From: Gammaproteobacteria bacterium
GTDB lineage: Bacteria; Pseudomonadota; Gammaproteobacteria; SZUA-140
Length of the DNA: 64,000 nucleotides
Assembly (NCBI GenBank): GCA_020847075.1
Contig: JADLCS010000050.1
Coordinates: forward strand, 2,026 to 66,025
Direction: 5' to 3'
Shown here one piece after another: positions 31,002 through 44,011 of this stretch; positions within the stretch are counted from its first letter, which is position 1; every line of letters begins with the position of its first letter. Under the pieces are notes generated by a model. It was not told the origin of the DNA. It saw only the letters and a program-made list of their open reading frames with translations, and did not search any database. The translations under genes were made by a program, and so were the position numbers.

Positions 31002-32780
31002 TCAATACACCCTGGGTTGCGGCGGAAACGGCTCCACCGTCCGCGGCTTCATGCGCACCGGCTTGTAATCCAGCGCGCCGCCGTCCCTGAAATACAAGGA
31101 ATGCTTCAGCCAGTGCTCGTCGTCGCGCCGGGGGTAATCGATGCGCGAATGGGCGCCCCGACTCTCCCGGCGCGCCAGCGCCGAACTCACCGCGGCCAGT
31201 GCCACGTCCATCAGGTTTTCCAGCTCCAGCGCCTCGATGCGGGCGGTATTGAAGACGCGGCTGCGGTCGCTCAGGGTGACCTGCTGCAATCTCCGTTCCA
31301 GCTCGCGCACCTCGAGGACACCCTGTTGCAGCACCTCCTCGGTGCGGAACACCCCGCAATGCCGTTCCATGACGCGTTGCAGCTCCGACCGCAAGCCACT
31401 CACCGTCTCGCCGCCGCGCCGTTCGTCCCAACGTGCCAACCGGGCGAGCGGTTGCTCGATCGACTCCGGATCGAGCGGACGGTGATAACGCGCCTCCTTC
31501 AGATACTCGATGATGTGATTGCCCGCCGCGCGGCCGAACACCACGATGTCGAGCAGCGAGTTGCCGCCGAGGCGGTTGGCGCCGTGCACCGATACGCAAG
31601 CGCACTCCCCCACCGCGTACAGACCGATCACGGGCTCCTCGGGGCCCTGCCGTTCCGGCGCCACCACCTGCCCGAAACGATTGGTCGGGATGCCCCCCAT
31701 CGTATAGTGGCAGGTCGGAAACACCGGTACGGGCGCCGTCACCGGATCGATGCGCAGGAAGGTCCCGACCATGGACTGGATACCGGGCAGGCGCTGGTGG
31801 ATCACGTCGGCGCCGAGGTGTTCGAGCCTGAGCAGGACATGGTCGCCTTCTGGCCCGCAGCCGCGCCCCTCGCGGACCTCGGTCGCGATCGCCCGGCTCA
31901 CCACGTCGCGGCTGGCGAGATCCTTCGCGTGCGGCGCGTAGCGCTCCATGAAGCGCTCGCCCTCGCGGTTGACGAGATAGCCGCCCTCGCCGCGCGCGGC
32001 CTCGGAGATCAGCATGCCCTTGCCAGCGATGCCGGTCGGATGGAACTGGACGAACTCCATGTCCTGCAGCGGGATACCGGCGCGCAGCGCCATCGCCATG
32101 CCGTCACCGGTGTTGATGTGCGCATTCGTATTGGTGCGGTAGAGCTGTCCGGCGCCGCCGGTCGCGAGCAGCGTCGTCTTGGCCTCGATCACCAGCGGTT
32201 CGCCGGTCTCGATACACAACACCAGCGCGCCGAGGATATAACCCTCGCGATCCTTGAGCAGATCGAGGGCGAAATACTCGTCGAAGAAATGCGTCCTGGC
32301 GCGGATGTTCTGCTGATAGAGCGCGTGCAGGATGGCGTGGCCGGTGCGATCCGCGGCGGCGCAGGTGCGCGCGGCCTGCTCGCCGCCGAAGTTCTGGCTC
32401 TGGCCGCCGAAGGGGCGCTGATAGATCTTACCGTTGTCCAGACGCGAGAACGGCACGCCGAAGTGTTCCAGTTCGATCACCAGCCGCGCGGCCGCGCGAC
32501 ACATGTACTCGATGGCGTCCTGGTCACCCAGCCAGTCGCCGCCCTTGACGGTATCGTACATATGCCAGTGCCAGTTGTCGGGCAGCACATTGGCGAGCGC
32601 TGCGTTCATCCCGCCCTGGGCGGCGACGGTATGGGAACGCGTCGGAAAGACCTTGGAGACTACCGCCACCGAGGCATCCGCCTGCGCCAGTTGCAGCGCG
32701 GCGCGCAGGCCGCCCCCGCCCGCGCCGATGACCAGGGTATCGAAGCGGCGGCGTTCCACCTCCTGGCCTCGGGCGTTCAT
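31002..32780 (-). CDS. sdhA: Succinate dehydrogenase flavoprotein subunit
   Basis: FDTLVIGAGGGGLRAAL...SHTVAAQGG... (His for covalent FAD). 592 aa from the ATG at 32780. Confidence 0.95.
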   Translation of the reverse strand: MNARGQEVERRRFDTLVIGAGGGGLRAALQLAQADASVAVVSKVFPTRSHTVAAQGGMNAALANVLPDNWHWHMYDTVKGGDWLGDQDAIEYMCRAAARLVIELEHFGVPFSRLDNGKIYQRPFGGQSQNFGGEQAARTCAAADRTGHAILHALYQQNIRARTHFFDEYFALDLLKDREGYILGALVLCIETGEPLVIEAKTTLLATGGAGQLYRTNTNAHINTGDGMAMALRAGIPLQDMEFVQFHPTGIAGKGMLISEAARGEGGYLVNREGERFMERYAPHAKDLASRDVVSRAIATEVREGRGCGPEGDHVLLRLEHLGADVIHQRLPGIQSMVGTFLRIDPVTAPVPVFPTCHYTMGGIPTNRFGQVVAPERQGPEEPVIGLYAVGECACVSVHGANRLGGNSLLDIVVFGRAAGNHIIEYLKEARYHRPLDPESIEQPLARLARWDERRGGETVSGLRSELQRVMERHCGVFRTEEVLQQGVLEVRELERRLQQVTLSDRSRVFNTARIEALELENLMDVALAAVSSALARRESRGAHSRIDYPRRDDEHWLKHSLYFRDGGALDYKPVRMKPRTVEPFPPQPRVY

Positions 32781-33118
32781 CGACCGTGCAACGAATACAG
32801 CGCCTGCAGCACCCACAGACCGGCGCCAGCGAGGACCAGCGCCGTCACCGCGAGCAGGGCGAGACGCAGGGACAGCGCGCCCGCATAGTCGATGATGACG
32901 TCGCGCATGCCGACCCAGGCATGCAGCAGGAGGGCGCCGAAGAACAGTGCGGTGGCCAGCCCGACGAAGGGATCGGCCATCCAGGCGCGCCAGGCGTCAT
33001 AGGAAGCGGGCGGCGCAATGGCGCAGGCCGCTGCGACGAACAGGGTATATGCCAGCAGGTACACCGCGCTCAGGCGCTGCCACAACCATGCGCGCAATCC
33101 CCGGGCGCGGCGGTTCAC
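32777..33118 (-). CDS. sdhD: Succinate dehydrogenase membrane anchor subunit
   Basis: GTG at 33118 overlaps the sdhC stop (GTGA). The 113-aa hydrophobic product ends ...LWVLQALYSLHGR. Confidence 0.75.
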   Translation of the reverse strand: MNRRARGLRAWLWQRLSAVYLLAYTLFVAAACAIAPPASYDAWRAWMADPFVGLATALFFGALLLHAWVGMRDVIIDYAGALSLRLALLAVTALVLAGAGLWVLQALYSLHGR

Positions 33119-33498
33119 GGCAGCAGCAGGGCCGCGCCCAGCATGGCGGCCACGCCTCCGGCCAGCACCGCCCAGGCGCTCGCTCGCGCGCCGCGCAGCG
33201 TGACCCCGATGTCGAGATCGATGAGCAGAAACCGGACCCCGGCCAGCACATGATGCGCGAAGGCCCAGACCAGCAGGAGCAGACCGACGCGCGCGCCCGC
33301 GTCCCGCGACAGTGCGACCACCTCGGCGTAGCCCCGCGCGTCCGCCAGCGAGCGGTCGAACAGATACGCTAGCAGAGGAATCGACAGCACCAGCAGGACA
33401 CCGCTGAGACGATGCCCCAGGGACAGTATGGCCATCACCGGAAAATGGATGCGGGTCAGCGTCAGGAAGACGGGGCGTTTGGCGTTGGGCGCTGTCAC
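33115..33498 (-). CDS. sdhC: Succinate dehydrogenase cytochrome b556 subunit
   Basis: RPVFLTLTRIHFPVMAILSLGHRLSGV is the SdhC signature. Three TM helices. Confidence 0.88.
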   Translation of the reverse strand: MTAPNAKRPVFLTLTRIHFPVMAILSLGHRLSGVLLVLSIPLLAYLFDRSLADARGYAEVVALSRDAGARVGLLLLVWAFAHHVLAGVRFLLIDLDIGVTLRGARASAWAVLAGGVAAMLGAALLLP

Positions 33499-33606
33499 GC
33501 CGCCTAGTGTAGCTCAGTCCTCCCCTTCCCACATCCTTACACCCGCGCCTGAATTCCGTTATGATCAGCGGTCCGATCCATCGATCCCGACAGGTCCGCG
33601 ATCCGC

Positions 33607-34650
33607 ATGAATCCACGCTGGAACGATTTTCTTCTCGAGGCCGGCGCCCGGATCGCCGGGGATCGCGTCGAGGACTTCGGAAATCCCTCGCGCGAACTGC
33701 AGGCCTCCGCCAGCGGCGACGTCATCGCGGACCTGAGCCATCGCGGCCTGATCCGCGTCCATGGGGCGGATGCCGCGAAGTTCCTGCAGGGACAGCTCAC
33801 CAACGACATCCACCTCGTCGACGAGGACCGCAGCCAGCTCAGCGGCTACTGCAGCCCCAAGGGGCGCCTGCTCGCCCTGCCGCGTGTGTTCCGTCGCGAC
33901 GACGCCTATTACCTGCAACTCCCGCGCGACCTGCTCGAGGTCACGCTGGCGCGCCTGAAGAAGTATGTGCTCATCTCCAAGGTCACGCTGGAAGACGCCG
34001 GCGAGGCGCTCATCGGCCTCGGCCTCGCCGGGCCGCGCGCCGCCGCGATCCTCGCGGACCTCGTCCCGCACGTCCCGGCGGGGCCCGATTCCGTCCGTCG
34101 CGGCGGCGACCTGAGTATATTGCGCCTGCCGGGCGGGCGGCCGCGTTTCGCCCTGTACGGCCCGGTCGCGGCGATGGAACAGGCCTGGACGGCGCTGGCC
34201 GCCCATGCCGCGCCGGTCGGCGCCGGGGCCTGGGACCGTTACGACATCCTGGCCGGGATCCCCGACATCCGCCCCGCCACGATCGATGAGTTCATCCCCC
34301 AGACCGTGAACCTCGAGCTGCTCGATGGGATCAATTTCAAGAAGGGCTGCTACACCGGCCAGGAGATCATCGCGCGCCTGCATTACCGCGGCAGCGTGAA
34401 ACGACGGATGTACCTCGGCCGCGCCGACGTGGAACCGGCGCCCGCACCGGGAACCCCGCTGTACGCCGCCGGGGGCGACGGCCAAGCCGTCGGCCATGTC
34501 GTTTCGGCCTGCCCCGCACCCGCCGGCGGCTCCGAACTGCTGGCCGTGGTCGCGGTCGAGCATTCCTCCGACAATACCCTGTATATAAAAGACAATCCTG
34601 AAGACCTGGTTACCCTGAGCCCCCCCGAGGGCCTGCCGCCCTTCGCCTGA
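33607..34650 (+). CDS. ygfZ: Folate-binding Fe-S cluster repair / tRNA-modification protein YgfZ
   Basis: LIRVHGADAAKFLQGQLTNDI and ...NFKKGCYTGQEIIARLHYRG are the YgfZ/CAF17 KGCYxGQE motif. Confidence 0.9.
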   Translation: MNPRWNDFLLEAGARIAGDRVEDFGNPSRELQASASGDVIADLSHRGLIRVHGADAAKFLQGQLTNDIHLVDEDRSQLSGYCSPKGRLLALPRVFRRDDAYYLQLPRDLLEVTLARLKKYVLISKVTLEDAGEALIGLGLAGPRAAAILADLVPHVPAGPDSVRRGGDLSILRLPGGRPRFALYGPVAAMEQAWTALAAHAAPVGAGAWDRYDILAGIPDIRPATIDEFIPQTVNLELLDGINFKKGCYTGQEIIARLHYRGSVKRRMYLGRADVEPAPAPGTPLYAAGGDGQAVGHVVSACPAPAGGSELLAVVAVEHSSDNTLYIKDNPEDLVTLSPPEGLPPFA

Positions 34651-34871
34651 GCCCCGCGCCGGCCCCACCGGTGGTGAAAGCCTGGCGCGTATCTTGCTAT
34701 CAAGTTATGGCGGACACGCCGATAGCCTAGGATCTGTCTCAAAATCGGCCTGAGTGAAAAGACGGGGTCATTCCCATACTCGCGGAAACGACAGCGTGAG
34801 TATCGATGCCAACAGGCATTTCCGATCCCGAGACAGGCTCCAGACACGTTCACCCATAACCGACGCGCGCC

Positions 34872-35723
34872 ATGGCCTCACAGCAAATCGAAATCTTCTG
34901 GAACGATCTGGTCGCGGACATCCGCACCAACCGGGTAATCCTGCCGGCCTTGCCAGAGATCGCGCTCAAGACCCGCAAACTCCTGGAGGACCGCAACGTC
35001 ACCACCAGCCAGATCGCGCGCGTGATCGGCGCGGACGCGGTGCTGACCACCCGCCTGCTCCGTGTCGTGAACAGCCCGCTCTACCGCACCCAGGACCCGA
35101 TCGAGGACGTCCGCACCGCGATCACCCGCCTCGGCAACAGCAATGTGCGCAGCGTGGTGACCAGCCTGGCCATGGAGCAGCTCTATCAGAGCAAGCTCGC
35201 CTCCCCGCTCAAGCGCAAGCTGCTCGCGCGTAACTGGGAACACAGCGTGCATGTCGCGGCGCTCAGCTACATCATCGCGGACAATTACACGCCGCTGAAC
35301 GCCGACGAGGCCATGCTGGCCGGGCTGGTGCACAACATCGGGGAACTGCCGATCCTGGAATACGCCGAACTGCTGCCCGACATCGCGGCGGACGAGACCG
35401 CGCTGAACCGCCTGCTCGAGGTACTGCATACGCGGGTCGGCGCGCTGGTGCTGGGGAGCTGGAAATTCCCCCGCGAACTGATCACCGCGGCGGCGGAACA
35501 CGAGGACCTCGCGCGCGAGCCGGGCACCGACGCCGATTACACCGACGTGGTGATCGTGGCCAATCTGCTCAGCTACATCGGCAGCGACCACCCCTACACC
35601 AAGCTCGACTGGTCCGCGATCCCCGCCTTCGGGCGGCTCGCCCTCACGCCCGAGGAGAGCATCGCCGCGATGCGGAACGCGCGCGAACAGATCCACGAGA
35701 TCAAACAACTGCTGGCGGGCTAG
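34872..35723 (+). CDS. HDOD domain signalling protein
   Basis: ILPALPEIALKTRKLLEDRNVTTSQIARVIGADAVLTTRLLRVVNSPLY is a typical HDOD N-terminus. Confidence 0.85.
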   Translation: MASQQIEIFWNDLVADIRTNRVILPALPEIALKTRKLLEDRNVTTSQIARVIGADAVLTTRLLRVVNSPLYRTQDPIEDVRTAITRLGNSNVRSVVTSLAMEQLYQSKLASPLKRKLLARNWEHSVHVAALSYIIADNYTPLNADEAMLAGLVHNIGELPILEYAELLPDIAADETALNRLLEVLHTRVGALVLGSWKFPRELITAAAEHEDLAREPGTDADYTDVVIVANLLSYIGSDHPYTKLDWSAIPAFGRLALTPEESIAAMRNAREQIHEIKQLLAG

Positions 35724-35807
35724 AAAAAAGGGGTCAGTACCCTTTTCTAAACAGGGACGAGCGAAACAGCCCCACGAAGCTGACGAAAAGGGTACTGGCC
35801 CTTTTTT
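35724..35807. repeat. Inverted pair of GGGGTCAG-type palindromes (bidirectional terminator-like)
   Basis: AAAAAGGGGTCAGTACCCTTTTC (35724-35747) and GAAAAGGGTACTGGCCCTTTTTT (35785-35807) are near reverse complements. They lie between convergent genes. Confidence 0.6.
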
Positions 35808-35818
35808 CAACCCCCTTT

Positions 35819-36592
35819 TCAGCGGAACGGCGCGCCGAGTACCCACACCACCAGGGAATACCGGACCCCCGTGGTGACCGGCGTCACCTGATGATAGACG
35901 TAGGACGGAAACACGATCATCGACCCCTGCGGCCGGATCTCCTCGCACTCGTGGTAGCGCTCGCGATGGCGCACGTGCGGACCGAAATCGAACTTGAGGT
36001 TCCCGCCCTCATAGGCACCGGGCTCGTTCAAGTTCAGCGTCATGCTGAGCTTCCTGACCTTACCGATCATACCGGGGTTGTCGATCGTATTGGGGGGCGG
36101 CCGCCCGTCCACCAGCGGCGTAACACCCGGCTCGAACCTGCGATAGGCGCCGTTGTGGCAGGTGAAACCGTCGGTATGCCAGCCGTAGAACCCGCCCGGC
36201 CGGTACACCGCGAATTGCATCGGCTCGGCGTAATCGACCTCGTATAACCAGCCCGCCCGCTGGTTGGCCTCGGCGATCAGCGGAAACAGCAGGTCGTAGA
36301 TCCACGCCTCGTTGAGAAAACAGACCTCGCTGTCGCGGATGTACTTCCCTTTCGTGGCCTCCTGCTGGGACGTGCCGGACGCCTGCGCCGCCTCTTCCAG
36401 CGTCCGGTCCGCCAGCGCGCTGGCGCCGGCATTGGCGGCGCCCTTCTGGGTACTGCCGAGCGTGACGCCGGTGGTCTCGACGCCCTGGGCCTTCAGTTGG
36501 GCCAGCACCTCCAGACCACGCGCCATGATCTTCTGGCAATTCTCCGGAGAGATCGCGCCCTTGAACCACCAATAGGGATGTACCGGAAGCAC
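35819..36592 (-). CDS. 2OG-Fe(II) oxygenase superfamily protein
   Basis: HxD (GWHTDGF), a distal His (SYVYHQVTPV) and RxS (GVRYSLVVW) are in the expected order. Confidence 0.75.
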   Translation of the reverse strand: MLPVHPYWWFKGAISPENCQKIMARGLEVLAQLKAQGVETTGVTLGSTQKGAANAGASALADRTLEEAAQASGTSQQEATKGKYIRDSEVCFLNEAWIYDLLFPLIAEANQRAGWLYEVDYAEPMQFAVYRPGGFYGWHTDGFTCHNGAYRRFEPGVTPLVDGRPPPNTIDNPGMIGKVRKLSMTLNLNEPGAYEGGNLKFDFGPHVRHRERYHECEEIRPQGSMIVFPSYVYHQVTPVTTGVRYSLVVWVLGAPFR

Positions 36593-36732
36593 GGTCTACC
36601 TGCGCCACCGAAACGGGGAGGAAACGCACATGGCTTTGTCCATATTTCCGCAATCCAGGGCAAAAAAGGGATACGACATAATCTACCAGAAAACCGCATA
36701 AACCGGGGATAGACCGCGGTCTCGGTGCCTCA

Positions 36733-36938
36733 GCCGTCAGTCATTACCGGCCTCCAGGATCTGCCCGGCAACACCCGCCTCCGGTTCCGGGCCACGTGCC
36801 AGACAGGAGCGAAAATGGCCTTCCCGCGCGGGGGCCAGCAACAGGTGCACATGGTTGGTCATCAGCACATAGACGTAGATCGCGCCGCCATGTTTCTCCG
36901 CTTGCTTCCGCAGGGTATCCGGGCAACGGGTTTTACCC
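36733..36938 (-). pseudogene. Remnant of a RAYT/IS200-like (Y1, HUH) transposase
   Basis: Minus-strand translation gives ...LRKQAEKHGGAIYVYVLMTNHVHLLLAPARE..., the HUH motif. The N-terminus is cut by the IS end at 36939, and a premature stop follows about 30 codons after HUH. Confidence 0.6.
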
Positions 36939-36989
36939 TGACCGTACCCCTGATTCTGTACTAATTATGATGTGGGAGACTTCATCATA

Positions 36990-37810
36990 TCAGGCCGTGA
37001 TCCGGGCAAATACTGCAGGCGGCTGGCTCCCTAGAGAACGGTGCGGCCGGACCTCATTGTAGTGGACGCGCCACGCCTCAATCGTCCTGCGAGCATCCCC
37101 CAAGTCATGGAACCAATGCAGATTAAGGCACTGATCCCGAAACTTCCCGTTGAAGCTCTCGACGAAGGCATTCTGCGTCGGCTTGCCGGGCTGAATAAAA
37201 TGTAATCTGACGCGGGTTCTCTGACTCAGAAGAACAGCGCTTTCCCTGTAAACTCAGGGCCATTGTCGCTGACGATCACCCGGGGCAGTCCCCGGCGGCT
37301 GGCGAGCTCATCGAGATAACGCGCAACCCGCGCTCCGGAGATCGAGACATCCACAATCTGCCCGACGCACTCGCGGGAATAGTCATCCACAATATTGAGA
37401 ACCCGAATCCGTCGGCCGCCCGCCAGCTGGTTGCTCACGAAGTCCATTGACCAGCGCTCGTTCAGCCGACCCGGGATGGTCATCGGAACCCGTGGCCTGG
37501 CCAGCTTCTTGCGGTGCTCGGTGCGCACCTGCAGGCCTTCCTCGCGGTAGAGCCGATATGTCCTCTTGCGATTCTGGACCAGTCCTTCGGCCTTGAGCAG
37601 GCCGTGCAAGGTCGGATAACCATACCTTGGATACTGCTCGGCCAGTGTCTTCAACCGGGTCCGCAGACACTCGTCACTGCGCCGGCACGAGGTGTACCGG
37701 TATACCGACCGGGGCACCCCCGCCAATCGACACGCCCGCCGCTCGGAAAGGCCTAGCGTCACCATCAGATGATCTGCCGCCTTCCTGCGCACGGCAGGCG
37801 TTACCATTTT
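36990..37810 (-). pseudogene. IS3 transposase OrfB (DDE integrase core), frameshifted
   Basis: LSERRACRLAGVPRSVYRY...WSMDFV...NIVDDYSRE...VSDNGPEFTGKAL, then a stop. The C-terminus HFIQPGKPTQNAFVESFNGKFRDQCLNLHWF...RPHRSLG continues in another frame, so an indel lies near 37226-37245. Confidence 0.85.
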
Positions 37811-38066
37811 CCCCGGGCGATCTCCTTCAGTGCCACGTTGTCGAGCAGACTGTCCGCGAGCAGACGCTTGAGCTTCGCATTCTCCTGCTCCAAGGCGCGC
37901 AATCGCTTGGCATCCGAGACCTCCAGACGCTGTACTTGGCCTTCCAGCGGTAGATCGACTGCTCACTCACCCCGTGACGTCTCGACAAATTCGGTACGGA
38001 GGCGCTAGCCTCATTCTCTTTCAGAATGCTGATGATCTTTTCTTCGGTGAACTGCTTGCGCTTCAT
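37801..38066 (-). pseudogene. IS3 transposase OrfA (HTH), frameshifted
   Basis: MKRKQFTEEKIISILKENEASASVPNLSRRHGVSEQSIYRWKAKY, then the frame is lost. The expected LEVSDAKRLRALEQENAKLKRLLADSLLDNVALKEIARGKW* is in the adjacent frame, so an indel lies near 37935. Confidence 0.8.
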
Positions 38067-38141
38067 CCTGGGACCCCCCCTCCAGCGTAATTATAAGGAA
38101 ATCCCACATCGATGATGGCCCGGATTACGGGGGTACGGTCA

Positions 38142-38216
38142 ATCTAAGCCAGCTTCTGCTGTGGCGAATAACAGTGCAGCCATCATGACTAGCACAGTGA
38201 TTAAATTGTATTTCAC
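38142..38216 (-). pseudogene. 5' stub of a second cassette ORF (signal-peptide-like), cut by the IS
   Basis: AGGGAG Shine-Dalgarno, then GTG at 38216: VKYNLITVLVMMAALLFATAEAGLD, which runs directly into the IS terminal repeat. Confidence 0.35.
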
Positions 38217-38235
38217 AGATATTCTCCCTATTGGC

Positions 38236-38299
38236 GCCTAACGACCGGCTTCAGGCGCGCGGCGCTTGCGCCGCGTCGCTCTGCAAGCCATAGTTAGCA
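38236..38299 (-). other. Integron attC recombination site
   Basis: The minus strand reads TGCTAAC(R'')-TAT-GGCTT[G]CAG[A]GCG[A]CGCGGC-loop-GCCGCGCGC-CTGAAGCC-GGTC-GTTAGGC(R'). It is an imperfect palindrome with three bulged bases. R' fits GTTRRRY. Confidence 0.7.
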
Positions 38300-39135
38300 C
38301 CTGCACTTGAATCTGCGGTTGGTGGGATTAGAAGGCAAGTCGGCCGAAGAAGGAGCAGATCCTCCCGAATCTCCTCATCAAGCGTCGCCATCGCCCCAAC
38401 CAATGAACCGTGAATCACATGATAACTGTCCAGCATCGAGTGTTCAGCCTTCTCAAGAAATACCCCCCCTTGAGAATCAGGAACCTTACCTTGATACCGA
38501 CCGAACAGGCGAAGGCTGCATAGGATCTGGCACTGCACCCATCGAAAGAATGCCCACTCAGGCGTAATTCTGTCGGGGCGAGGGGCATTTCGGGGAGCGT
38601 CCTCGTCCAAAAAGGAAGCGTAGATGCCCCTTATGAAATCTACATCTGTGGCGGTTCTCTGTCGGGCCTCCTTGATCGCGTTCGGAAACTCCTTCCACTC
38701 AATGCCGTTGATCTCAGGGAAAAACTGATGCACTATTGACCATCGCTCGATAAAACCACGCGTATCATCGCCAATTGTGCTTTTCCATTCCTCAAGATAC
38801 TGGAGCATTTGGCCATCGGGGATGAAAGATCCGTCCCGTAGTTTGTTACTGAATTGGAAAGCATCGTTCAACCGATGATCGACCACCGGCGTGCATGCGA
38901 TTTCCTGCTCTATCTCGAAGCGCAGAAGCGATCCGACGTTTGGTATAAGGTACACGGGGTTGGTTTTGTCAGGTAACTTCGAAAAGCAGCGCTGCTGACT
39001 TTCCGGTCGCGTTGTTATCAACTCGAAGAATAGTTCGTCGGATACCAATACGACATAATCTTCGCACAGCGCTCGCACAGCCTCAGTAGACGCTCCGTCG
39101 AGAAAGCTCTTATCCAATATAACGCTGATTTTCAT
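38251..39135 (-). CDS. Integron cassette ORF 2, unknown function (PIN-like N-terminus by motif only)
   Basis: 294-aa ORF with visibly lower G+C. Starts MKISVILDKSFLDGAS...VVLVSDELFFEL. Its last 15 codons lie inside the attC. It begins 18 nt after ORF 1. Confidence 0.7.
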   Translation of the reverse strand: MKISVILDKSFLDGASTEAVRALCEDYVVLVSDELFFELITTRPESQQRCFSKLPDKTNPVYLIPNVGSLLRFEIEQEIACTPVVDHRLNDAFQFSNKLRDGSFIPDGQMLQYLEEWKSTIGDDTRGFIERWSIVHQFFPEINGIEWKEFPNAIKEARQRTATDVDFIRGIYASFLDEDAPRNAPRPDRITPEWAFFRWVQCQILCSLRLFGRYQGKVPDSQGGVFLEKAEHSMLDSYHVIHGSLVGAMATLDEEIREDLLLLRPTCLLIPPTADSSAGANYGLQSDAAQAPRA

Positions 39136-39153
39136 GGGTCAGGTGTTACGCGG

Positions 39154-39681
39154 CTACATTCTCTTCCCAAAGCCATCGGTCTGATAGTGCCCAGCGCCAT
39201 AACAGTACACACAACTTTCTACTTCTCCTCTGCAGAAACAAACAACCGTATGTCTTTCATCTCTTCTTCTTTGTAGCTCCTCATCTGACATGGACACAGG
39301 GGCGGGCGTTGCTGCGCCAGAATCCGGTTTCGGTTCAGATTCCTGGTGGGTGGAAGCAATCTTCGCTGCAAGGGATTTGTTGTTTCTTATAAACTCAATC
39401 ACCCACTCGGTACTTATCAGTCTTCCCTTGTATTTGTCAGTCAACTCCGATGTCCGATGCCGGTATAGCTTGTAATGGTTCCACGGACGCGGGTCAAGTC
39501 CAGACCAACTTGCTTCAACTTCAAGTAGCACTCGCGTCCTAACACCCTTAGGGCAAATCTTTAGGAGCCGTCCGTCGGGCCAATATTCGTCTCCTTGGTA
39601 ATGGGCTTTGGAGCCAATGATAAAGGCTTCCATACCATTCTCCTCGGCAATTGTGCGAACTGTTTCTAGGAGTTTTTCCAT
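39154..39681 (-). CDS. Integron cassette ORF 1, unknown function (C-terminal CxxCxGxG zinc-ribbon motif)
   Basis: 175-aa ORF with lower G+C. C-terminal VVCFCRGEVESCVYCYGAGHY. An alternative start at 39633 (MEAFIIGS) has a GAGGAG Shine-Dalgarno. Confidence 0.7.
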   Translation of the reverse strand: MEKLLETVRTIAEENGMEAFIIGSKAHYQGDEYWPDGRLLKICPKGVRTRVLLEVEASWSGLDPRPWNHYKLYRHRTSELTDKYKGRLISTEWVIEFIRNNKSLAAKIASTHQESEPKPDSGAATPAPVSMSDEELQRRRDERHTVVCFCRGEVESCVYCYGAGHYQTDGFGKRM

Positions 39682-39685
39682 ATCA

Positions 39686-39798
39686 TGCTAACAGTTAATT
39701 AGACGGAGTCGGTGATATTGGTGATAGGCGGATTCTATGTAGCATCGGCATGCCTCCCCTCTTCGCCCGATTTCCAGTAGGATACCCTTAACCCTTTC
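39686..39798 (-). other. attI region with the attI/cassette junction GTTAGCA
   Basis: The 117-bp intI-cassette spacer. The minus strand has AACTGTTAGCATGAT immediately before the first cassette ATG. GTTAGCA (39692-39686) is the exact reverse complement of the attC R''. Confidence 0.5.
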
Positions 39799-41211
39799 AT
39801 GGATGAAAGCCGAGGTGTCGTCATGGATGATGATCAGCGCGCCGCCTGTGAACGGCGGTTTTGGGCCCGTTATGCAAATATCATTATTGGTCAAGGCATT
39901 AAACCTTCTCTGGTACGCTGGCACGTGCTGCGGGCGAAGTCTTTCATCAAGACCTTTCCGGGCAGGCGTCTGGCCGATCTCGGGCCGGACGACGTCGCCG
40001 CCTATCTGACCCAGGCAGGCCGTCAGCAGACGGTGGAGCCCTGGCAATTCCGGCAAATCGTCGATGCTATACAGATTCTGTATAGCATTGTTCGCACGGA
40101 ATGGGCGACAAGCTTCGACTGGGACTACTGGCGCGATTCCGCACAGGCGCTGGGCGCCCAGCATGCCACGACGGCGCGAGAGGTCACGCCGGTCACACCC
40201 GGGGAATTTGCCGAGCGGCTCGGAGATACACGCTTCGCGCCGCTGATCCGGGCACACCTGGAGTTATTCGCAACCGTCGCCGCCGTGATCCGCACACGGA
40301 ATCTGGCGTTCCGCACCGAGCAGACCTACATGAACTGGATGTGCCGCTTCATGATTCACCATGGCGGACGTTCACCGGCCGAGCTCGGCGGACCCGAGGT
40401 GGCGGAATTCCTCCAGCACTTAGCGGTCAGACGCAACGTCGCGGCAAGCACGCAGAATCAGGCGCTGAATGCGCTGGTGTTCCTCTATGATCAGGTACTG
40501 CAAAGGCCCTTGGGTGATATCGGCGCCTTTGTCCGCGCCAAACGATCCCGGCGCATCCCGACGGTCCTGACCCGCGCCGAGGTCGGGCGCATTCTGGCCG
40601 AGCTGCACGGCCTGCAGGAATTGATCGTTTCGCTGCTCTACGGGACCGGCATGCGTCTCATGGAAGGTCTGAGACTGCGGGTGCAGGATATCGACTTTGG
40701 CCGCAACCTGATCGTGGTCCGCCACGGGAAGGGCGACAAGGATCGCGTCGCGCCCCTTCCCGCCACCCTCGTCGCCGGGATCAAGGGGCACCTTGCAGAG
40801 GTCAGGGCCTTGCATGAGCGTGATGTTGCGGAAGGATTCGGCGAGGTTTTTCTGCCGCACGCGCTTGCGACGAAATATCCGAACGCCGCCCGGGAGTGGC
40901 GCTGGCAGTTCGTGTTTCCGAGCGGCCGGCTGTCAGTCGACCCGCGCAGCGGCAAGACGCGACGGCATCATCTTCACGAGAGCGCCGTCCAGAAGGCGGT
41001 TAAATCGGCAGCGCGGCGCGCAGGGATAGCAAAAAAGGTCGGCTGCCATACCCTGCGCCACAGTTTCGCGACGCATCTCCTAGAGCGAGGACAGGATATC
41101 CGCACCGTGCAGGAGCTGCTGGGACATGCGGATGTGTCCACGACAATGATCTACACCCACGTACTCAATCGTGGCGGTATGGGTGTGCTCAGCCCGCTCG
41201 ACGCAGACTGA
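39799..41211 (+). CDS. intI: Integron integrase IntI with an N-terminal extension of about 145 aa
   Basis: [20 protein letters not shown]...[15 protein letters not shown]; the Arg in [13 protein letters not shown]; the IntI-specific insertion [47 protein letters not shown]; and [12 protein letters not shown]...[22 protein letters not shown] (H-R-H-Y). Confidence 0.9.
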
Positions 41212-41348
41212 AGCTATCCCTGGCACGAGGCGCCGGTTCCCGGCGAATGGACAGGCCACGGTTTCGCCGATCCGGCGCGGCCATGCCTCTCCCGCTACGG
41301 GATCACTCTGGCTGGCCAGTCCTTGACTGACGACAGATGCCGCAGCCC

Positions 41349-42848
41349 CTACTCCGGCTTCATATGCGGAAACAGCAGCACGTCGCGGATGGAGGGCGAG
41401 TCGGTGAACAGCATCACCAGGCGGTCGATGCCGATGCCTTCGCCTGCGGTGGGCGGCATGCCGTGTTCGAGGGCGCGGATGTAGTCGGCGTCGAACAGCA
41501 TCGCCTCCTCGTCGCCGGCCTCGCGCGCGCGCAACTGGTCCCGGAAGCGTTCCGCCTGGTCCTCGGCGTCGTTCAGCTCGGTGAAGCCGTTGGCGATCTC
41601 GCGCCCGCCGATGAACAGTTCGAAGCGGTCGGTCACGTCCGGATCGGCGTCGTTGCGCCGCGCGAGCGGCGACACCTCGGTGGGATACGAGGTGATGAAG
41701 GTCGGCTCGTGCAGGCGCGACTCCACCGTCTGCTCGAACAGTTCGAGCTGCAGCTTGCCAAGGCCGTAATCGTCCTTCGCCGCGATACCGCGCGCGGCCA
41801 GCAGCGCGCGCAGCCTTCCCGGATCACGCAGATCGTCCGCCGTGATATCCGGGTTGTAGTGCAGGATCGCCTCCGGCAGCGTCAGGCGGCGGAACGGGCG
41901 GCCGAAATCGAACTCCGCCCCCTGGTACGTGAACGCGGTCGCGCCGAACACGTGCAGACTCAGGCCGCGCAGCATCTCCTCGGTCAGGTCCATCAGGTCG
42001 TTGTAGTCCGCGTAGGCCTGATAGAACTCGAGCATGGTGAACTCGGGGTTGTGGCGCGTCGACAGGCCCTCGTTGCGGAAATTGCGGTTGATCTCGAACA
42101 CACGTTCGAAGCCGCCGACCACCAGGCGCTTCAGGTACAGCTCCGGCGCGATGCGCAGATAGAGCGGGATATCGAGCGCGTTGTGATGCGTCTTGAACGG
42201 GCGCGCGGTGGCGCCGCCGGCGATGACTTGCATCATCGGGGTCTCGACCTCGAGGAAGGCGCGCTCGCTGAGGAAGCGGCGGATGTAATCGACGATGGCG
42301 CTGCGCACGCGGAAGGTGCGCCGGGCGACGTCGTTCATGATCAGGTCGAGATAGCGCTGGCGGTAGCGCGCCTCCTGATCGACGAGGCCATGGTATTTGT
42401 CGGGCAGCGGGCGCAGGGCCTTGGTCAGCAGCCGGACGCGGTCGACCTTCACCGACAACTCGCCGGTCTTGGTCCGGAACAGCGCGCCCTCGGCGCCGAG
42501 GATGTCGCCGATGTCCCAGCGCTTGAACTCCTCGAACGCCTCGAGCCCGACGGTGTCGCGCTGGACGTAGAGCTGGATCTGGCCCGACATGTCCTGCAGG
42601 TGCGCGAAGGCCGCCTTGCCCATCAGGCGGCGCGTCATCATGCGGCCGGCCACGCTCACCCGCCGCACGTCGCGCTCCAGCGCCTCCGCGTCGGCCGAGG
42701 CGTACTCGGCATGCAACTCGCCAGCCACCACGTTGCGGCGAAAGTCGGTTGGGAAGGCATTGCCGCGCGCGCGCAGGGCGGCGAGCTTCTCGCGCCGCTG
42801 CGCGACCTGTTCCTGTTCATCCTGCGGACGGTCGTCGTCGGATTGCAT
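41349..42848 (-). CDS. lysS: Lysine--tRNA ligase (class II)
   Basis: ...[10 protein letters not shown]...GGATARPF...[23 protein letters not shown]...[20 protein letters not shown] Shine-Dalgarno before the ATG at 42848. Confidence 0.95.
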
Positions 42849-42865: not shown

Positions 42866-42915
42866 AAAAACCGGGGACAGACCCCGTTTTCCGGCGTAAA
42901 GGGGTCTGACCCCTA
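42866..42915. repeat. Two GGGGnCAGACCCC-type hairpins between prfB and lysS
   Basis: AAAAACCGGGGACAGACCCCGTTTT (42866-42890) and TAAAGGGGTCTGACCCCTA (42897-42915). Confidence 0.6.
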
Positions 42916-44011
42916 TAAGCCCTGCTTGAGGCTGGCCTCGATGAAGGTGTCCAACTCGCCGTCGAGCACCGCCTGCGTGTTGCCGGTCTCGATGCCGGTG
43001 CGCAGATCCTTGATGCGCGACTGGTCGAGTACATAGGACCGGATCTGGTTGCCCCAACCGATGTCGCTCTTGCTGTCCTCCAGCGCCTGTTTCGCCGCGC
43101 TGCGCGCGTTCAGCTCCCGCTCGTAGAGCTTCGCCTTGAGCTGTTTCATCGCGGTGGAGCGGTTCTTGTGCTGCGAGCGGTCGCTCTGGCACGCCACCAC
43201 GATGCCGCTGGGGACATGGGTGATGCGGATCGCCGATTCGGTGCGGTTGACGTGCTGCCCGCCCGCCCCGCTCGCGCGATAGGTATCGACCTTGAGGTCG
43301 GCCGGATTGATGTCGATCTCGATGTCGTCGTCCACCTCCGGCGAGGCGAACACCGCGGCGAACGAGGTATGGCGGCGGTTGCCGGAGTCGAACGGCGACT
43401 TGCGGACCAGGCGATGCACGCCGGTCTCGGTGCGCAGCCAGCCGTAGGCGTATTCCCCGTCGAACTTCACCGTGGCGCTCTTGATGCCCGCCACCTCGCC
43501 CGGCGAGACCTCGATCAGCTCGGTCTGGAAGCCGTGCGCCTCGCCCCAGCGCAGATACATGCGCAGCAGCATCTCGGCCCAGTCCTGCGCCTCGGTGCCG
43601 CCGGAGCCCGCCTGGATATCCAGGAAGGCGTTGCTGGCGTCCATCTCGCCCGAGAACATGCGGCGGAACTCCATCGCGGCCAGCCGGCCCTCGATCTCGT
43701 CCAGGTCCGCGATCACCGCGTCGGCGGCGCTCGCGTCGCCCTCCTCGTCGGCCAGTTCGAGCAGCTCGCGCGCCTCGTTCAGGCGGTCCTCGATCCCGGT
43801 GCAGCCGCCGACCGTCTCCTGCAGCCGCACCCGCTCGCGGCCCAGTTCCTGGGCCCGCTGCGGGTTGCCCCACACCGCCGGGTCCTCCAGCTCGCGTCCG
43901 ACTTCGATCAATCGCTCCCGCTTGTCGGCGAGGTCAAAGATACCTCCCCAGATCGGCGAGGCGACCCTGCATGTCCTTGATGCGCGTGAATACGAGATTG
44001 AGTTCGAGCAT
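42913..44011 (-). CDS. prfB: Peptide chain release factor 2 (programmed +1 frameshift)
   Basis: ATG at 44011 gives [25 protein letters not shown], then an in-frame TGA. The +1 frame continues [19 protein letters not shown]...[19 protein letters not shown] (GGQ motif) to the stop at 42913. Confidence 0.95.
43933..43950 (-). promoter_or_regulatory. RF2 recoding site
   Basis: The minus strand reads GGGGAGG-TAT-CTT-TGA-C: an SD-like element 3 nt upstream of the CUU UGA C slippery/stop context. Confidence 0.85.

Follow-up and report, generated by a model that had tools for sequence, protein, structure and literature searches.

The 64-kb stretch of DNA analysed here (the window) comes from a gammaproteobacterial metagenome-assembled genome (MAG). 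It carries an integron integrase gene on the plus strand, an adjoining attI region and, divergent from intI, cassette reading frames and an attC site whose polarity lies on the minus strand. The features are listed below with the evidence on which each assignment rests.

36939..38141, minus strand: IS3-family insertion sequence (Pfam HTH_Tnp_1, HTH_21, rve)
38142..38241, minus strand: remnant of cassette 2 (sequence and translation)
38236..38299, minus strand (top strand): attC of cassette 1, 64 nt (covariance model, folds, structural scan)
38242..39691, minus strand: cassette 1, 1450 bp (attC model, blastn boundaries, five-way alignment, G+C)
38251..39135, minus strand: ORF2, 294 aa (87 homologues, AF2 model)
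39154..39681, minus strand: ORF1, 175 aa (five homologues, AF2 model)
39692..39798, minus strand: attI and promoter region (blastn to four relatives, five-way alignment)
39799..41211, plus strand: intI, integron integrase (TIGR02249, Pfam, VchIntIA alignment)
39823..40248, plus strand: additional domain of 142 aa at the IntI N-terminus (Pfam, internal BLASTP, 2A3V alignment, cluster search)

The longest open reading frame of intI in the ORF list (39799–41211) encodes 470 aa. Translation probably begins with the ATG at 39823, which would yield a protein of 462 aa. This is the length of the IntI homologues and of the gene call in an identical contig (L098), and in a five-way alignment L089 and L091 do not have the first ATG (39799) in frame. 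The frame is intact and holds all catalytic residues. Specifically, alignment with VchIntIA (PDB 2A3V) shows conservation of R, K, HxxR, H and Y, in agreement with the R-H-R-Y contexts reported in an earlier note on this DNA. Against NCBIfam TIGR02249 the protein scores 470.5 bits (cutoff 265), whereas it falls below the cutoffs for XerC (TIGR02224, 143.3 bits, cutoff 335), XerD (TIGR02225, 153.3 bits, cutoff 330) and XerA, and also below that of the class-1-type equivalog NF011946 (331.9 bits, cutoff 435). Pfam finds SAM_4 twice, together with Phage_integrase. Residues 151–460 align end to end with VchIntIA (E 1.5e-93), and the IntI-specific insertion aligns without gaps to the matching VchIntIA segment, which bears out the earlier description of a tyrosine recombinase carrying this insertion. 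By sequence comparison, the integrase is an IntI and not a XerC/D recombinase.

The attC site and the attI crossover

On the minus strand, from 38299 to 38236, the attC site reads TGCTAAC TAT GGCTT[G]CAG[A]GCG[A]CGCGGC GCAA GCCGCGCGC CTG AAGCC GGTC GTTAGGC, where the R'' box is TGCTAAC and the R' box is GTTAGGC. The earlier note had taken this 64-bp imperfect palindrome for a canonical attC, and our folds are in accord: the site folds into a single hairpin in which one arm carries all three bulges, each of one base, and the folding z-scores are -3.2 (top strand) and -2.0 (bottom strand). The bottom, recombinogenic strand is the plus strand of the window, and its extrahelical bases are T, T and C. 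The base proximal to the L box is the C; most relatives have G here, and C occurs in 4 of the 25 sites of the model described below.

Rfam holds no attC family, and at its gathering thresholds the only hit in the window is a tRNA. The site was scored with a home-made covariance model (R1) of 25 attC sites from other integrons. Their alignment has 16 consensus pairs, and compensatory changes occur in 13 of these. R1 matches 38236–38299 over its full length and on the plus strand only, with 47.3 bits (E ~2e-8); the opposite strand of the site scores 11.1 bits, and the next best match in 128 kb searched reaches 12.7 bits. As a positive control, the model detects 17 attC sites at 22–53 bits, on the cassette strand, in four arrays outside the training set, and those checked against the gene calls of L089 fall between cassette ORFs. 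Neither beyond the insertion sequence nor elsewhere in the 64-kb window does any further attC exceed 12.7 bits with R1, and a structural scan of both window strands found no other compact hairpin with the attC layout. Excision by attC × attC recombination is impossible in the remaining array because it has one attC only.

At the other end of cassette 1, the minus strand reads GTTAGCA at 39692–39686. The earlier note had this position right but gave the spacing to the first ORF as 5 nt; the actual distance to the ORF1 ATG is 4 nt. Crossover is predicted between G39692 and T39691 of the minus strand. Blastn similarity to four other integrons (L081, L089, L091 and L092) starts at 39688–39690, and in the five-way alignment conservation sets in at AAC|AGT, with unrelated sequence on the cassette side. 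The attI junction had thus been placed correctly to the base, and comparison of platforms fixes the crossover to within a few bases, providing a clean natural example. The attI region includes the conserved block GGTGATATTGGTGATAGGCGGATTCTATGTAGCA. A conserved TATA-rich block in attI may be the cassette promoter; a simple sigma-70 consensus scan of 39690–40400 found no promoter for the cassettes, and a search for a LexA box near intI found none.

As the earlier note had pointed out, the R'' box TGCTAAC and the GTTAGCA at the attI boundary are exact reverse complements. The same rule holds in L081 and L082, and among relatives 14 of 22 adjacent attC pairs obey it, where 5.6% would be expected to do so by chance. 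We nonetheless do not treat the match as strong proof, since CTAAC is nearly fixed and free variation is confined to two of the seven positions, which puts the chance rate at ~6%.

A two-gene cassette and a truncated array

Cassette 1 starts with TTAGCA where it joins attI, and its last base is the G in the R' core of its own attC. The lower G+C noted previously for its two minus-strand ORFs is evident in the cassette unit as a whole, at 0.508 compared with 0.62 for intI, 0.67–0.71 for the flanks and 0.65 for the window. ORF1, for which only five homologues were found, has a Cys-rich C-terminus (CxC...CxxC). ORF2 has 87 homologues in several phyla, all named 'hypothetical', and its last ~16 codons read through the attC site. 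The AF2 model of ORF2 has a pLDDT of 89.4 and a pTM of 0.87, with residues 276–294 disordered; that of ORF1 has a pLDDT of 75.

Neither protein matched Pfam, NCBIfam, PADLOC or PHROGs, and profile searches of PDB sequences likewise gave no match. Foldseek comparison of both AlphaFold2 models with PDB and BFVD returned no match at E <0.1; the ORF1 model has no PDB match, and ORF2 has none in PDB, BFVD or Pfam by model or sequence. With respect to resistance genes, NCBIfam and Pfam gave no match for the cargo proteins. A PIN-like identity for ORF2 was considered and dropped, as its basis was only the beta-alpha topology of the model and conserved D8, E38 and D236, and no search supports it. Lookup of the 470-aa IntI form and of ORF2 in a contig index gave no match.

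The two ORFs are separated by 18 bp and have a single terminal attC in common, and R1 finds no attC between them. The ORF1 homologue in L082 carries its own attC, and in L086–L088 an attC lies directly upstream of the ORF2 homologue, with a different gene before it. Because the homologues of each ORF occupy attC-marked cassette positions in other arrays, the two-ORF unit probably arose by fusion of two cassettes whose intervening attC was lost, and the heptamer GCGTAAC, located 4 nt beyond the ORF1 stop codon, may be what is left of the lost R''. The earlier view of a two-ORF cassette therefore holds for an insertion unit with its attC, and probably not for a single original cassette. Nor are the ORFs part of a conserved non-integron locus, given these attC-marked homologues and the differing cassettes of relatives. 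An obligate toxin–antitoxin or defence pair was also considered for ORF1 and ORF2, and was rejected on the grounds that the homologues in L082 and L086–L088 occur in separate attC-marked cassettes.

Beyond the attC, the remnant of cassette 2 retains a ribosome-binding site and a 25-codon ORF resembling a signal peptide (38216 to 38142). The IS3-family element cuts this ORF after the 25 codons and supplies its stop codon. Both terminal inverted repeats of the element are present (TGACCGTACCCC / GGGGTACGGTCA), its orfB is frameshifted, and no target-site duplication was found on reading its ends. From this last observation, the rest of the array was probably lost by IS-mediated deletion. [quoted passage not shown] With its probably fused first cassette, its IS-cut second one and an insertion sequence lacking a target-site duplication, the locus presents array erosion in progress.

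Related platforms, known systems and alternative readings

Four integrons with IntI proteins 78–93% identical to this one carry unrelated genes on the cassette side, so that cassette content differs at a shared platform. The closest is L081 (IntI 93% identical), whose alignment spans 39688–41409 and so reaches into the lysS flank; at 88% DNA identity it occupies the same chromosomal site with entirely different cassettes. L089, L091 and L092 (IntI 78–81% identical) align only from 39689/90 to 41211/12 and have arrays of 9–15 classic cassettes. In three of the four relatives, then, the shared DNA ends at the intI stop codon (41211/12). In the window, lysS, prfB and recJ-like ORFs follow intI directly.

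In integrons, the partners that IntI brings together are the double-stranded attI, immediately upstream of intI, and the folded bottom strand of the attC of a circular cassette. Strands are exchanged at 5'-G/TT-3', such that the cassette lands beside attI and can be expressed from a promoter within the intI/attI region. At this locus, a 1450-bp unit (39691–38242) was inserted by this route; it holds two genes unrelated to each other and was probably formed when two cassettes fused upon loss of the attC separating them. The IS3-family element cut cassette 2, and IS-mediated deletion probably removed the remaining array. We infer this history of fusion and deletion, as well as activity of the integrase in the strain and the location of the cassette promoter.

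As intI, attC, the attI crossover and differing cassettes at a shared platform are all demonstrated, we are highly confident that this uncultured gammaproteobacterium carries a genuine chromosomal integron here. The rival view, that there is no integron and that a XerC/D-like or phage-type integrase adjoins an unrelated terminator- or REP-like hairpin, is scarcely credible. The hairpin does come after an ORF, as a terminator would, and the folding z-scores alone are modest. The stem is not followed by a T-run, however, its attC score is strand-specific, similarity to other integrons breaks exactly at GTT cores, and the integrase scores far above the cutoff of the integron model while remaining under those of the Xer models. 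We likewise give very little weight to a mobile integron of the class 1–5 type on a transposon or plasmid. The different genes that adjoin related platforms (clpB in L091, lipB in L090) and the insertion sequence beside the array would suit such an element, but the NF011946 score is below cutoff, the housekeeping genes directly after intI and the lysS-side flank shared with L081 speak for a chromosomal site, and neither Tn402- or Tn7-type genes nor resistance-gene matches in the cargo were seen. A chimeric join from metagenome assembly or binning is similarly improbable. The source is a MAG contig, and none of the independent contigs retrieved spans 38244–38471; against this, L098 comes from another run and matches 38472–41438 with 100% identity, including the intI–cassette junction. 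L093, from another sample, is 99.8% identical over 32495–38243, and attC, cassette start and attI are mutually consistent.

The alternative that deserves more attention, although we consider it unlikely, is a stranded remnant: an integron platform that no longer captures or shuffles cassettes after IS-mediated loss of its array, with the fused cassette as fixed cargo. Such a state would fit the single attC left in 64 kb, the truncation of the array by an insertion sequence without target-site duplication, the missing attC between ORF1 and ORF2, the lack of a recognisable Pc promoter or LexA box in our searches and the recurrence of the arrangement at 100% identity in another sample. The intact intI with all its catalytic residues argues against it, as does L081, whose different cassettes at the same site indicate that the platform has turned over cassettes recently. 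Moreover, contig L093 breaks off at 38243, no more than a base or two from the R' junction of attC, which fits an assembly-graph branch at the crossover.

The integron supported here is real but ordinary, and it belongs to a known kind of element. IntegronFinder defines a complete integron as an IntI-type recombinase with at least one attC within 4 kb, and the attC (by our home-made model) lies 1.5 kb from intI. A sedentary chromosomal integron, by the operational definition of Cury et al. 2016, has >19 attC sites or is present in all genomes of a species; with one attC in the 64-kb window, the locus does not qualify by number of sites, and the platform occurs at the same site in one related lineage, L081. 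The scores under the NF011946, XerC and XerD cutoffs, the housekeeping flanks and the IntI insertion place the locus outside both the mobile classes 1–5 and XerC/XerD. The remark in the earlier note that chromosomes of this kind do not routinely carry integrons is unsupported, since the genome is gammaproteobacterial and ~20% of such genomes carry a complete integron (PMC4889954). As one more environmental chromosomal integron in a group where these are common, the locus has little import beyond annotation.

Among known systems, the Vibrio cholerae chromosomal integron shares the divergent arrangement of intI and cassettes, as well as attC sites with R''/L''/L'/R' boxes and extrahelical bases on the bottom strand. 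Its array, however, has ~180 nearly identical VCRs with attC sites of ~125 nt, compared with one attC of 64 nt here. The class 1 mobile integron (IntI1, attI1, Tn402) follows the same recombination logic with a GTTRRRY core at attI and attC; in addition to the NF011946 result, the present locus differs in being chromosomal, without transposition genes, resistance cassettes or a 3' conserved segment. Fused cassettes, with two genes and one attC, occur in mobile resistance integrons. There too, genes found elsewhere in separate cassettes share one terminal attC, but ORF1 and ORF2 have no recognisable function in Pfam, NCBIfam, PADLOC, PHROGs or PDB.

The N-terminal extension of the integrase

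The most unusual feature of the locus is an N-terminal SAM-like duplicate in IntI. PF13495 matches the protein in two stretches, and internal BLASTP aligns the two SAM-like domains at 30% identity (E 1e-4). VchIntIA (IntI4) aligns over its full 320 aa, comprising the catalytic domain, the IntI insertion and a single SAM-like domain, but the alignment begins only at residue 151 of the present protein, which has an extra 142-aa N-terminal domain. Judged from these matches, this domain duplicates, in diverged form, the SAM-like core-binding domain. To our knowledge, 2A3V is the only solved IntI structure, and it has no counterpart to the extra domain.

The same two-SAM-domain architecture is found in 'long' IntI proteins of 460–470 aa from Ectothiorhodospira, Thioalkalivibrio, Chromatiales and Desulfobacterota (55–93% identical). 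The closest of these integrons also have the conserved attI block, and their attC sites fit one covariance model together with the attC described here. The relatives examined have 3 to 15 cassettes, in contrast to the single fused unit and cassette stump of the present array. The extra domain is N-terminal in 820 representative protein clusters, and we found no description, experimental or other, of the long form in the searchable literature. The 142-residue duplicate sets apart a large and apparently uncharacterised clade of long integron integrases. Membership in a clade with a second N-terminal DNA-binding domain could interest integron specialists, as could the closely located attI crossover and the eroding array.

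A bolder and quite tentative reading, to which we give perhaps the same modest chance as to a stranded remnant, is that the duplicated domain marks a distinct mechanistic subclass of IntI and that, separately, ORF2 represents a widespread cassette-borne family with a fold new to PDB. Were this so, the extra domain would alter attI recognition or the regulation of recombination relative to IntI1 and VchIntIA. It might contact a second DNA partner, or it might bind attI itself, where conserved GATA-containing direct repeats (GGTGATATTGGTGATA) lie at 39709–39726.

The integrase and its long form

Overall, the locus qualifies as a genuine, complete integron by the IntegronFinder definition; its array is small and eroded, and its cargo has no recognised function. 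On recheck, intI, the two minus-strand ORFs and the palindrome are as the earlier note, which claimed a complete chromosomal integron at 38236–41211, had described them. The features of the locus are as follows.

39799–41211, + strand: intI ORF, 470 aa, including the IntI-type insertion
39823–40248, + strand: extra N-terminal IntI domain, 142 aa (Pfam PF13495 twice, internal BLASTP)
39700–39745: conserved attI block GGTGATATTGGTGATAGGCGGATTCTATGTAGCA, from alignment of related integrons
39692–39686, − strand: GTTAGCA, 4 nt before the ORF1 ATG
39681–39154, − strand: ORF1, 175 aa, divergent from intI
39135–38251, − strand: ORF2, 294 aa, divergent from intI
38299→38236, − strand: attC, a 64-nt imperfect palindrome into which ORF2 runs; starts TGCTAAC, ends GTTAGGC
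38142–38216, − strand: cassette 2 stump, an ORF of 25 codons after attC, with a ribosome-binding site; the encoded start VKYNLITVLVMMAALLFATAEAGLD is hydrophobic and resembles a signal peptide
38141→36939, − strand: IS3-family element with terminal inverted repeats TGACCGTACCCC / GGGGTACGGTCA and HTH_Tnp_1, HTH_21 and rve domains
36750–36938, − strand: REP-associated/IS200-type (Y1) transposase fragment, recognised by eye (...YVLMTNHVHLLLAP...), cut by the IS and abutting it

With respect to the integrase, the proposal that it is an IntI and not XerC/D is borne out by profile scores: the protein matches NCBIfam TIGR02249 (integron integrase) at 470.5 bits (cutoff 265), whereas the XerC, XerD and XerA models reach 143–179 bits, under their cutoffs of 220–335. 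The class-1-type equivalog NF011946, at 331.9 bits, is likewise under its cutoff of 435. Among solved structures, all of VchIntIA (the Vibrio cholerae IntI, PDB 2A3V) is matched end to end by IntI residues 151–460 (E 1.5e-93), in an alignment that takes in the insertion segment as well as catalytic residues R, K, HxxR, H and Y. Of the named integrases, those of Ectothiorhodospira, Thiohalomonadaceae, Thioalkalivibrio and Chromatiales are nearest. The true start is likely the second ATG, at 39823, giving 462 aa, because almost all full-length homologues among the matches listed are about 460–470 aa (exactly 462 aa in six of the eight closest), two relatives have the first ATG (39799) out of frame, and the gene was called as 462 aa in an identical contig from another run.

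Unlike VchIntIA, whose solved structure has no counterpart to it, the window IntI bears the additional 142-aa N-terminal domain. Pfam PF13495 matches IntI at two places and internal BLASTP aligns the extension with the rest of the protein (E 1e-4); these matches identify the extension as a second, diverged copy of the SAM-like core-binding domain. It occurs N-terminally in 820 representative protein clusters and is common to a large clade of integrases about 460–470 aa long, the long form being encoded by ~30 of the best 80 genome loci. No description of it was found in the searchable literature. The integron belongs to a well-known kind; its long-form integrase is the sole lead at the locus deserving specialist attention.

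The attC site and the attI junction

Folded as DNA, the palindrome forms one hairpin whose three bulges, each of a single base, lie on the same arm, in agreement with what had been read from the sequence. The attC family is absent from Rfam. A scan for such structures in 81 related loci yielded ~40 attC-layout hairpins beside other integrases, on their cassette side, and 25 aligned hairpins from other integrons, none from the window, were used for a covariance model (RNAalifold consensus of 16 pairs, compensatory changes in 13). Searched against both strands of the entire window with filtering disabled, this model returned a single attC, at 38236–38299 on the + strand and at full model length, with 47.3 bits (E about 2e-8) against a runner-up of 12.7 bits and 11.1 bits for the same site on the opposite strand, which upholds the assignment of the palindrome as an attC. 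As a positive control, four arrays outside its training set were searched, and the model detected 17 sites (22–53 bits) on their cassette strand; those in the related locus L089, compared with gene calls, are located between cassette ORFs. The + strand match makes this the recombinogenic bottom strand, in agreement with the minus-strand orientation of the cassette ORFs. On this strand T, T and C are extrahelical, the last position being G in most relatives and C in the window, as in 4 of the 25 model sites.

While a cassette is circular, its R'' is paired with the R' that comes to lie at its 5' end upon insertion. GTTAGCA is on the minus strand where the earlier note placed it, albeit 4 nt and not 5 before the ORF1 ATG, and the R'' heptamer TGCTAAC is indeed its reverse complement. 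Among relatives, 22 pairs of neighbouring sites were detected, and in 14 of them R'' of site k is the reverse complement of R' of site k−1, compared with 5.6% when pairs are drawn at random across loci; the rule is kept in the related loci L081 (GTTAGGG / CCCTAAC) and L082 (GTTAGCG / CGCTAAC). Such a match is supportive but weak evidence, since the heptamer is nearly fixed at five of its seven positions.

The placement of the attI junction proved right to the base. L081, a metagenomic contig with an integrase 93% identical to the window IntI, aligns to 39688–41409, reaching the 3' end of lysS, at 88% DNA identity; beyond 39688, on the cassette side, it has three unrelated genes. For L089 and two further loci, L091 and L092 (integrases 78–81% identical), alignment is limited to 39689/90–41211/12, which runs from the crossover as far as the stop codon of intI, and their arrays hold 9–15 typical cassettes each, with glyoxalases, acetyltransferases, NUDIX, HNH, Mrr, TIR, ParE, BrnT/A and HicAB as cargo. 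All four relatives thus carry different cassettes at the platform, in the comparison that the earlier note had proposed. In the five-way alignment conservation begins exactly at AAC|AGT and the cassette side is unrelated, so the intI–attI platform is a discrete conserved unit. The attI block GGTGATATTGGTGATAGGCGGATTCTATGTAGCA hardly varies between integrons whose integrases share only 69–93% identity, and it includes two direct repeats of the GATA type, 9 nt apart; the block may represent integrase-binding repeats or a promoter.

Cassette cargo and the eroded array

As claimed from the sequence, the two ORFs divergent from intI have lower G+C (0.51) than the flanks (0.67–0.71); intI is at 0.62. 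ORF1 has only five homologues, one of which (63% identical; L082, 1870–3125) occupies the first cassette by itself, with a separate attC (51.5 bits), and adjoins a 148-aa integrase fragment, so that platform has apparently decayed. The 87 homologues of ORF2, all unnamed, come from gamma- and betaproteobacteria, Ignavibacteria, Tectomicrobia and Electrothrix; in the related loci L086–L088 an attC lies directly upstream of the homologue and is preceded by a different gene. The covariance model finds no attC in the 18-bp gap between ORF1 and ORF2, and the simplest reading is that two cassettes were fused through loss of an internal attC. A GCGTAAC heptamer, 4 nt past the ORF1 stop, may be an R'' relic.

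Neither ORF matches Pfam, NCBIfam, PADLOC or PHROGs. The AlphaFold2 model of ORF2 is confident (pLDDT 89.4, pTM 0.87; attC-encoded tail disordered); into its small alpha/beta core a large helical segment is inserted, and D8, E38 and D236 are conserved. The model is without a neighbour in the PDB or BFVD, and looks faintly PIN-like, without backing from any search. For ORF1 the model is of moderate confidence (pLDDT 75.2), likewise with no match.

At the array end, the stop codon of the 25-codon ORF is provided by the first bases of the IS3-family element, and this ORF is the remnant of a second cassette cut by the IS. The element has a frameshifted orfB and keeps both terminal inverted repeats. 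No target-site duplication surrounds its ends (38141 and 36939), which suggests that an IS-mediated deletion took away the remainder of the array; ~23% of complete integrons include an IS (PMC4889954). The 43-aa transposase piece at 36750–36938 has no Pfam match, and past it the sequence looks like native chromosome and encodes a 2OG-Fe(II) oxygenase and an HDOD protein. Between these convergent genes, a 23-nt inverted repeat at 35725–35807 (91% complementary, AAAAAGGGGTCAGTACCCTTTTC / GAAAAGGGTACTGGCCCTTTTTT) looks like a bidirectional terminator.

Genomic setting

The earlier statement that integrons are not routine in such chromosomes is unsupported, since complete integrons occur in ~20% of gammaproteobacterial genomes (~6% of all genomes; Cury et al. 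2016, PMC4889954). Proteins around the locus cluster at at least 90% identity with proteins named 'MAG: Gammaproteobacteria bacterium'. Moreover, most of the locus is reproduced by independent assemblies: a contig from another run (L098) is 100% identical across 38472–41438, and one from another sample (L093, SRR26671183) is 99.8% identical across 32495–38243. The latter terminates at 38243, one or two bases at most from the attC R' junction, as expected of an assembly-graph branch if different cassettes precede that point, and its end may reflect cassette heterogeneity in that sample. At 42913–44000 (− strand), a release-factor-2-like ORF begins at an internal TTG, without the first ~30 codons in that frame, as would be expected if prfB has its usual programmed +1 frameshift here.
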